Virus record (IMG/VR): IMGVR_UViG_2585427757_000019
DNA length: 7,385 nt
Direction: 5' to 3' (one strand)
From: a virus
Lineage: Duplodnaviria; Heunggongvirae; Uroviricota; Caudoviricetes
Part shown: positions 1-1,009 of the stretch, in pieces
How the letters are laid out: each line of letters starts with the position of its first letter
How positions within the stretch are numbered: the first letter of the stretch is position 1
Program-made: the position numbers and the translations under genes
Notes under the pieces: generated by a model
Told to the model about the DNA's origin: nothing
Seen by the model: the letters and a program-made list of their open reading frames with translations, nothing else
Database searches by the model: none

Positions 1-246
1 CTGAACCGTCGATATGAAAAAGCGAGCATCGTGCTGACGTCAAATAAAGGGTTCGCCGACTGGGGAGAGATGTTCGGCGATAACGTGCTGGCAACGGCAA
101 TCCTGGATCGACTGCTCCACCACTCAACCACACTGAACATCAAAGGAGAAAGCTACCGATTAAAGGAAAAACGCAAAGCGGGAGTGCTGGCAAAAAACGC
201 CACGCCAATCAGTGATGATGAAATGGCGGAAAGCGGACAACATTAA
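1..246 (+). CDS. istB: IS21-family helper ATPase IstB, C-terminal part (5'-partial, runs off the left edge of the window)
   Basis: Frame 1 is open from base 1 to the TAA at 244-246. The translation ...[52 protein letters not shown]... matches the conserved C-terminal signature of IstB proteins ([24 protein letters not shown]) as I recall it. No search was run. Confidence 0.8.
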
Positions 247-303
247 TGACCAATAGCGGACATTAAAAATGGCGAAAAACGGCCAATAATCTTGGCGTTG
301 ACA
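1..303 (+). mobile_element. Right end of an IS21-family insertion sequence; right boundary approximate (about 298-305)
   Basis: istB normally lies a few tens of bp from the IS right terminus. The candidate terminus ...GGCGTTGACA ends in CA, as IS21-family termini do. Similarity of the minus-strand ORF to the phage O protein N-terminus is lost at exactly this point (after ...RVADLDD), which places the junction near 303. Confidence 0.55.
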
Positions 304-383
304 TCATCGAGATCTGCCACGCGCGGCTCCTTTTGTGCCGCATCCGGCACTGGAAAATTGAATATCTCAGCAGTGTTTGCCAT
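304..383 (-). pseudogene. Lambda O-like replication initiator, N-terminal fragment of about 27 codons truncated by the IS insertion
   Basis: Minus-strand ATG at 383-381 is preceded by GGGAGG (rc of 386-391). The translation MANTAEIFNFPVPDAAQKEPRVADLDD resembles the lambda O N-terminus as I recall it (MTNTAKILNFGRGNFAGQERNVADLDDGY...). After LDD the frame continues into IS sequence (VNAKIIGRF...) and stops at 243-245. The listed ORF 243..473 is this chimera with an upstream in-frame extension. Confidence 0.5.
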
Positions 384-469
384 AATTCCTCCCGCAATGA
401 GTGTGTTACGATTTGCACCTGAAAGTCGGTTCTGTTCCAGCAGACCGGCTTTCGCCATTTCTGAACCTG

Positions 470-1009
470 TCATATCGCCCCCAGCATGGTAGTAACCATC
501 GCCATCAATGGACCAGCCAGATCTGGGTCCACACGAAACATCGACACAATACCTTCACTAATTTCCTTCAGTTTCTGGTGGCGTGGTGCGTTGAGAATGA
601 CAGCCTGTTTTGCCTCACTGAGTTCCTTTTCCATTTCAGCCAACCTAGCCATGAAGCTATCCTGCTCAACCAGGTAACCGCGATATTCCAGCGGTAGTAC
701 CGCCAGAATTGCCGGGGTCAGTTCACGCACGTTATTTCGGTATTTTTCAGAATCGAATTTGTTATCGAGGAAGCGGAACAGCTTCTGGCGTGCACGGCTG
801 ACATCATCAGGGAAATCGATGGTGCCGCCGCCCTGCTCCCGATACTCATTCACAATGAGTGTGGCAACGACATCCTGATTATCTACAGCCGACCAGGCGC
901 GGACGGCATCACGGATTTTTTCGTGGCCTGGCACCTGTTTTGTTTGAGAACGATTTATCACCGCAGTCGGGCTAAATCCGCTAGTCTGTTGGTATGTAAG
1001 TGGTTGCAT
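470..1009 (-). CDS. Regulatory protein in the cII position, possibly YdaT-like (functional CII analogue of Rac/CP-933P-type prophages)
   Basis: 179-aa ORF directly downstream of the cro-like gene on the same strand. AAGGAG lies about 8 nt upstream of the ATG at 1009. Its stop overlaps the next ATG (ATGA at 470-473). Motifs such as EYREQGGG and LTPAILAVLPLEYR are reminiscent of YdaT as I remember it, but this is a tentative family call. Confidence 0.55.
   Translation of the reverse strand: MQPLTYQQTSGFSPTAVINRSQTKQVPGHEKIRDAVRAWSAVDNQDVVATLIVNEYREQGGGTIDFPDDVSRARQKLFRFLDNKFDSEKYRNNVRELTPAILAVLPLEYRGYLVEQDSFMARLAEMEKELSEAKQAVILNAPRHQKLKEISEGIVSMFRVDPDLAGPLMAMVTTMLGAI

Follow-up and report, generated by a model that had tools for sequence, protein, structure and literature searches.

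An ISEc62 element within the replication initiator gene O of a lambda-like prophage at argU in Escherichia coli

The left edge of the window (the whole analyzed stretch of tailed-virus DNA, 7,385 nucleotides long), where the beginning of a lambda-type replication gene meets the end of an istB gene on the other strand, raises the question of whether an insertion sequence has cut the initiator gene O of a prophage and what this implies for the rest of O and for the element that carries it. The answer that we hold to be probable as a whole is that a copy of ISEc62 (2125 bp, istA-istB) transposed into O of an argU-integrated lambdoid prophage of the PhiR34_1 type. The IS would have entered after codon 27 in the orientation opposite to that of O, with TCAT as a 4-bp target duplication. 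What was observed directly is where the two DNAs meet, which elements they belong to, and that the 7 kb rightward of this point are intact.

The IS21 family and its features have been defined previously (PMC10122671), and the interrupting element has the properties of this family: istA (390 aa) is followed by istB (264 aa) on one strand of contig L004, the pair being annotated in six other copies as well; the 390-aa IstA carries PF00665 rve (DDE) together with PF22483 in the precomputed Pfam assignments; the full 264-aa IstB of the same contig carries the AAA+ helper domain PF01695; and the ends are 5'-TG...CA-3' terminal inverted repeats with two repeated motifs per end. PGAP calls identical copies "IS21-like element ISEc62 family", in agreement with the family assignment made in the initial annotation. 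Within the window the istB frame is open from base 1 and its stop codon occupies 244-246, the product of 31-246 aligning to positions 190-238 of the 238 positions of PF01695 (IstB_IS21).

The IS boundary at 303 was set by aligning complete copies from unrelated contexts, a chromosomal prophage of strain AST85 (L002) and the plasmid pAPEC3701 (L003). An IS end at 306, as far as several copies match, was replaced by an end at 303 followed by a 4-bp duplication after both ends of six copies had been compared. Full-length ISEc62 measures 2125 bp, starts with TGTCAGCGCCAATG and finishes with CTTGGCGTTGACA. At its right end the inner repeat R2 CCAATAGCGGACA is located at 250-262 and the terminal repeat R1 CTTGGCGTTGACA, with CA as the last bases, at 291-303; the left end mirrors the right one, with TGTCAGCGCCAATG at IS positions 1-14 and TGTCCGCT at IS position 43, as seen by eye in the aligned copies. 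The istB stop (246) lies 57 bp before the IS end (303), the same as the approximate value given initially. The ISEc62 part of the source contig (2043 nt) has 1 mismatch to the AST85 copy, and the element is like ISEc62 in its 2125-bp architecture, TG...CA ends, two repeat motifs per end and 4-bp duplications; no difference was detectable between ISEc62, represented by PGAP-labelled copies, and the element in the window, which holds the last 303 bp only. A preference of ISEc62 for TCA targets was not found across the six complete copies. Reading of the sequence also gave no hybrid outward promoter from the TTGACA at 298-303, there being no -10 element at 16-18 nt.

On the other side of the junction more than 30 complete E. 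coli genomes match window positions 302-1320 at 100% without 1-301. The intact O of IS-free relatives is a 309-aa "replication protein" with PF04492 (Phage_rep_O) at residues 21-115 (E 1e-33); translation starts at the equivalent of window position 383 on the - strand, and the N-terminus reads MANTAEIFNFPVPDAAQKEPRVADLDD and then GYTRIANE, the IS break falling between the two. Exactly 27 O codons (383..303) remain when compared with the 309-aa orthologues, where about 27 had been estimated, with codon 27 taking its third base from the IS. The intact O frame runs on for 282 more codons in the IS-free relatives, which bears out the initial reading of O as a gene interrupted by an IS. A GGAGG precedes the ATG at 383 by four bases; an alternative in-frame ATG at 473, overlapping the ydaT stop, is used by some annotations (339-aa O) and would leave 57 codons, and with either start codon nearly all of the O domain is gone. 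Residues 1-27, the only ones present in the window, gave no Pfam match and represent a fragment of a Phage_rep_O member, not a functional member.

According to the alignments, ISEc62 interrupts codon 27 of O, the gene for the replication initiator, in a lambda-like prophage that E. coli carries at argU. Given exact identity over 1 kb on the phage side and the single mismatch in 2043 nt on the IS side, the match at this junction is far beyond chance; since the IS and its flank are both essentially identical to other copies, the insertion seems to be recent, and it also seems to be strain-specific, being confined to two sibling assemblies. The IS/O junction was absent from complete E. coli genomes (0/5426). 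That prophages decay through IS insertions in their genes is well known, and the knock-out of a replication initiator by an IS is already known in kind, being textbook prophage decay. The features of the window are collected in Table 1.

Table 1. Coordinates of the features identified in the window
Position	Strand	Feature	Basis and remarks
1..246	+	istB, 3' part (ISEc62 helper AAA+ ATPase)	PF01695, E 6e-21; identical copies annotated "IS21-like element helper ATPase IstB"
247..303	+	ISEc62 right terminal inverted repeat region	boundaries from comparing complete 2125-bp copies
304..307	.	TCAT, presumed right copy of the 4-bp target-site duplication	inferred; left copy outside the window
303..383	-	O' remnant, first 27 codons of lambda-type initiator O	same as start of the 309-aa PF04492 protein (IS-free relatives, PhiR34_1)
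243..473	-	chimeric 76-aa ORF: 30 in-frame upstream codons, 27 O codons, 19 IS-derived codons	exact sequence is KDU22741.1 / KEL81446.1
470..1009	-	ydaT-family gene in the cII position, upstream of O in the rightward operon	PF06254, E 8.5e-30; annotated cII in PhiR34_1
1079..1309	-	cro-like regulator (YdaS family)	PF15943, E 4e-17
1348..2103	+	cI-type repressor (HTH_3 and Peptidase_S24)	PGAP start 1414 (229 aa); protein identical in PhiR34_1
2699..4745	+	kil 2699-2905, gam 2981-3277, bet 3283-4068, exo 4065-4745, all full length	precomputed Pfam KilR, Gam, RecT, YqaJ
5995..6366	+	P22-type excisionase xis (123 aa), overlaps the int start	HTH_17; 76% identity over 122 aa to P22 Xis (116 aa)
6222..7385	+	intD-type tyrosine integrase (387 aa)	PF00589, E 5.5e-47; intD in L001; argU tRNA-Arg(tct) next

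A close relative of the interrupted prophage is available as a phage record: window positions 302-7385 match Escherichia phage PhiR34_1 (PV340559.1) with 99.887% identity, the differences being six substitutions and one 2-nt indel. The PhiR34_1 record is complete at 44.6 kb and lists E. coli K-12 MG1655 as the host; a literature search on PhiR34 and its accession found no paper. Its gene order is that of the window (int, xis, exo, bet, gam, kil, cI, cro, ydaT, O) and continues beyond it with P, ren, emrE, ybcK ... Q and a porin gene after O. The O gene of PhiR34_1, nucleotide-identical to that of the IS-free relative L001, is uninterrupted, in contrast to O of the window with ISEc62 after codon 27. 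PhiR26_1 and Turner are further related argU-integrating lambdoid phages alongside PhiR34_1. The - strand of L001 carries a YdaS-type cro, a YdaT-family gene in the cII position, the 309-aa replication protein, P and ren, and the late region of the IS-free relative includes terminase, portal, capsid and tail genes.

The attachment site was recognized from a tRNA-Arg(tct) located 16 bp from the int stop in L004 and from int being annotated as intD in L001; a tRNA-Arg(tct) after an intD-type integrase therefore identifies the argU site of DLP12. The DLP12 prophage of E. coli K-12, which is without the immunity, Red and O region that the window prophage has, uses the same argU attachment site beside an intD-type integrase, and its marker genes emrE, ybcK-ybcO, rusA, quuD, essD, rrrD and rzpD are found in relatives of the window prophage; in the source strain this right-arm DNA would be situated past the IS. 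DLP12 is a well-known K-12 remnant (for background see PMC6379469). The window evidently represents the early-left arm of a PhiR34_1-type genome, K-12 DLP12 being a decayed relative. Identification of the element itself as a K-12-type DLP12 remnant, already dead, was ruled out by the full late region of the relative and the 99.9% match to PhiR34_1.

The consequence for replication follows from what lies in the missing part of O. The IS-free relatives have the gene order ydaT-O-P, and the origin expected of an O gene was seen in them: five iterons (TTTACCTGATTCGGGTAAAC; L001 8619-8740) at O codons ~114-154 followed by an A+T-rich stretch, which is the ori-lambda-in-O arrangement. No iterons were found within the window. 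After a simple insertion the remaining 282 O codons, with the iteron-type origin, and P would be situated beyond the 2.1-kb IS on another contig. The 27-residue O stump would be unable to bind iterons, and between the origin, even if kept, and the early rightward promoter there would be 2.1 kb of IS in the opposite orientation. The stump would be without nearly the whole O DNA-binding domain, and origin-dependent replication would then not be started. We consider the loss of O function to be a sound inference and the prophage to be, by analogy with lambda, reasonably regarded as replication-defective.

A spontaneous IS2 insertion in lambda P is known to abolish lambda replication together with replicative killing (PMC4926192). 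The lambda P::IS2 and O-frameshift "RK-" mutants of the Hayes laboratory resemble the present case in that ori-dependent prophage replication was abolished, likewise via the initiation genes (PMC4926192). They differ from it in being laboratory-selected in a non-excisable lambda fragment, in contrast to the window, where a natural isolate carries a different IS with no evidence of selection.

The genes to the right of the junction are well preserved. The cI-type repressor, cro, ydaT, kil and gam proteins are identical to those of PhiR34_1, and only 3 substitutions separate the two within 2699..4745; by gene, bet has two base substitutions relative to PhiR34_1, and exo, a TraR-like ORF and the xis/int overlap have one each. 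The earlier statement that immunity, Red, xis and int are intact was upheld: all are full length, with proteins identical to, or with at most 2 substitutions from, those of PhiR34_1. The Ala-Gly site, the GDSM serine and the VKRL lysine of the cI-type repressor are readable in the sequence and, given that these residues are kept, the prophage should still derepress. As cI, cro, kil, gam, bet, exo, the P22-type xis and int are all full length, induction and excision are plausible. In the proposed course of events, SOS cleavage of the cI-type repressor would lead to excision via P22-type Int and Xis, with no amplification and no burst; other lesions may be present outside the window. The initial description of the prophage as replication-defective and still inducible or excisable can be kept in this graded form, its first part being a reasonable extrapolation from lambda biology and its second a plausible expectation from full-length genes. 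For work on excision in the absence of replication, the strain might be used as a naturally occurring O-null control. Beyond annotation the significance is small: an argU prophage near-identical to a viable phage has its replication initiator knocked out.

The alternative with most in its favor, which we find somewhat less credible than its opposite, is that the prophage was dead before the IS arrived and that the insertion was a neutral event in decaying DNA, not the cause of the defect. Such decay is visible in the same prophage type: in the IS-free L001 (strain ST2350) P contains an internal stop and exo a frameshift (L001 7455-8156 and 12764-13443, respectively), ybcK being frameshifted too, and AST85 has an internal stop in O (L002 5905 onward), as if different strains were inactivating this prophage type at different points. 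The remnant state of K-12 DLP12 (PMC6379469) points in the same direction, as do two other ISEc62 copies in this prophage family. Against this stand the full length of each gene in the right-hand 7 kb and the 99.89% identity to a phage whose record is complete and names E. coli K-12 MG1655 as host, which argue for a young, recently functional prophage. Of the seven ISEc62 copies examined, three lie in this prophage family, namely in O (window 1-303), in the gam-kil spacer (AST85, L002 1179-3303) and in the rrrD lysozyme gene (JNE070796, L010 ~379-2503), which suggests, in a small sample, that the family is a frequent sink for ISEc62.

Another question is what lies on the far side of the IS. 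According to the initial annotation, the bulk of O and everything past the IS had been lost, and this part of it was not supported, since the window starts, and the contig in GCA_000700445.1 ends, within the IS. This contig, JNMR01000040.1 (L004), encodes the exact 76-aa ORF of the junction, differs from the window in one base and holds 2043 nt of the IS, ending inside it 82 bp short of the left end; such an end inside ISEc62 comes from the assembly breaking off at a repeat, as is usual, and not from a deletion. The complete ISEc62 copies speak against the loss as well, all six of them being simple insertions with both target halves flanking the element. These copies (L002, L003, L010-L013) are all 2125 bp long, with the duplications TCAT, TCAG, ATAT, ACAT, TATC and CCAT; rrrD, umuC, yejO and a YfjP-family GTPase gene are each split by ISEc62 with both halves flanking it. 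For the insertion in O only the right TCAT is visible, the left junction being located off the contig. From the 4-bp duplications of all six complete copies it therefore follows that TCAT is most likely the right-hand duplication, with the other 282 O codons about 2.1 kb leftward.

That the IS instead marks a rearrangement seems to us unlikely. In that case the remainder of O, P and the late region would have been lost or moved elsewhere, either through ISEc62-ISEc62 recombination or through a deletion next to the IS. The far side of the IS is unobserved, the chimeric ORFs predicted for it are missing from the protein collection, and ISEc62 is multicopy where present (median 2, up to 12 places per genome), with assemblies breaking in it. 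However, six out of six complete copies are simple insertions with matching 4-bp duplications, a contig break within the repeat is expected either way, and whether a predicted ORF turns up in a protein list is governed by gene calling and by the starting point of the contig. For the same reason the missing far-side ORFs are weak evidence at best, giving a weak hint that the far side either is not a plain O' junction or has been annotated differently. Exact scans for either junction in genome contigs and metagenome contigs gave no match. Of sixteen predicted far-side O' products, two were not diagnostic and the others were missing from the protein collection, where neither the far-side fusion ORFs of 304 and 303 aa nor ten partial forms occurred. 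Two 269-aa forms of O (P0015 and P0121) were rejected as far-side products, being a contig-end fragment and alternative start calls on intact genes.

At the opposite extreme from a prophage that was already dead, ISEc62 might be the sole inactivating lesion of an otherwise functional PhiR34_1-type phage and the first step of its "grounding", maybe selected for the absence of replicative killing and maybe with istAB read-through reinforcing repression; we regard this fuller version as improbable. The istAB pair is oriented like cI and runs antisense to cro and ydaT, and a strong + strand terminator was not found between 246 and 1186. In the absence of such a terminator before cI, istAB read-through might reinforce repression in the manner of a constitutive PRE.

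Returning to the insertion itself, an assembly chimera with no IS in O of the real genome is very improbable: the source is a draft assembly and the window probably begins at a contig end, but the same junction is present in two separate assemblies that are one SNP apart in the window, the break coincides precisely with the canonical CA end of the IS, and 2043 nt of the IS are contiguous with phage DNA in one of the assemblies. Least credible, to the point of being negligible, is a genuine short gene at 243-473 with homologues of its own, where an open 76-codon frame annotated in GenBank as a "replication domain protein" is opposed by its last 19 codons being antisense ISEc62 sequence, by its singleton cluster, by the lack of a Pfam match and by a frame that runs on for 282 more codons in all IS-free relatives.

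The GenBank "replication domain protein" of 76 aa is evidently a chimeric artefact. It forms a singleton cluster among ~15 billion proteins and is known only from the two accessions given in Table 1, which belong to two assemblies both named E. coli 3-267-03_S4_C2. Homologues ending at the same position in IS-free contexts, which the initial annotation had named as the outcome that would speak for an intact gene, were not found.

Several smaller observations concern the right-hand part of the window. PGAP annotates only the first 22 xis codons in L001 (14693-14758, equal to window 5995-6060), as an "incomplete HTH" pseudogene. The possibility that xis is a pseudogene (HTH_17 positions 2-32 only, PGAP "incomplete") was rejected because the gene is full length relative to P22 Xis and identical in isolated phages, the 123-aa protein having 100% identity in phages ev243, 2G7b and Turner; the 22-codon call appears to be a recurring annotation error. 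At window position 4832 there are two T residues fewer than in PhiR34_1, and a 60-aa DUF1317 ORF (4742-4924) stays open, as in L001; the PhiR34_1 record has no gene annotated at the position of this ORF.

The stretch between cI and kil (2104-2698, ~600 nt) contains no + strand ORF above 31 aa; lambda carries N between these two genes. It includes a terminator-like hairpin at 2225-2242 and an AACAAC-TTTT-GTTGTT palindrome near 2377-2396. Rfam searches found nothing in the window, this stretch included, and the segment 2440-2615 folded no better than shuffled sequence. A second palindrome with 9-bp arms, ATGGTTGTT...AACAACCAT, is located in the cro/cI intergenic region (1348-1372) and has a half-site in common with the palindrome downstream of cI (~2377-2396); the two are likely to be the OR and OL operators. 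The cI start at 1414 given by PGAP is more plausible than the longest-ORF start at 1348, as the latter falls inside the first palindrome.

Finally, a promoter-like TTGAAT-17-CATAAT site with TG is present on the + strand at 358-386, followed downstream by a strong hairpin at 420-454 (+), the folded segment 393-485 having a z of -2.3. Together (358-454) they are directed antisense into the 3' end of ydaT, in the position and orientation of the lambda oop RNA, and the IS, 55 bp upstream, leaves them intact.
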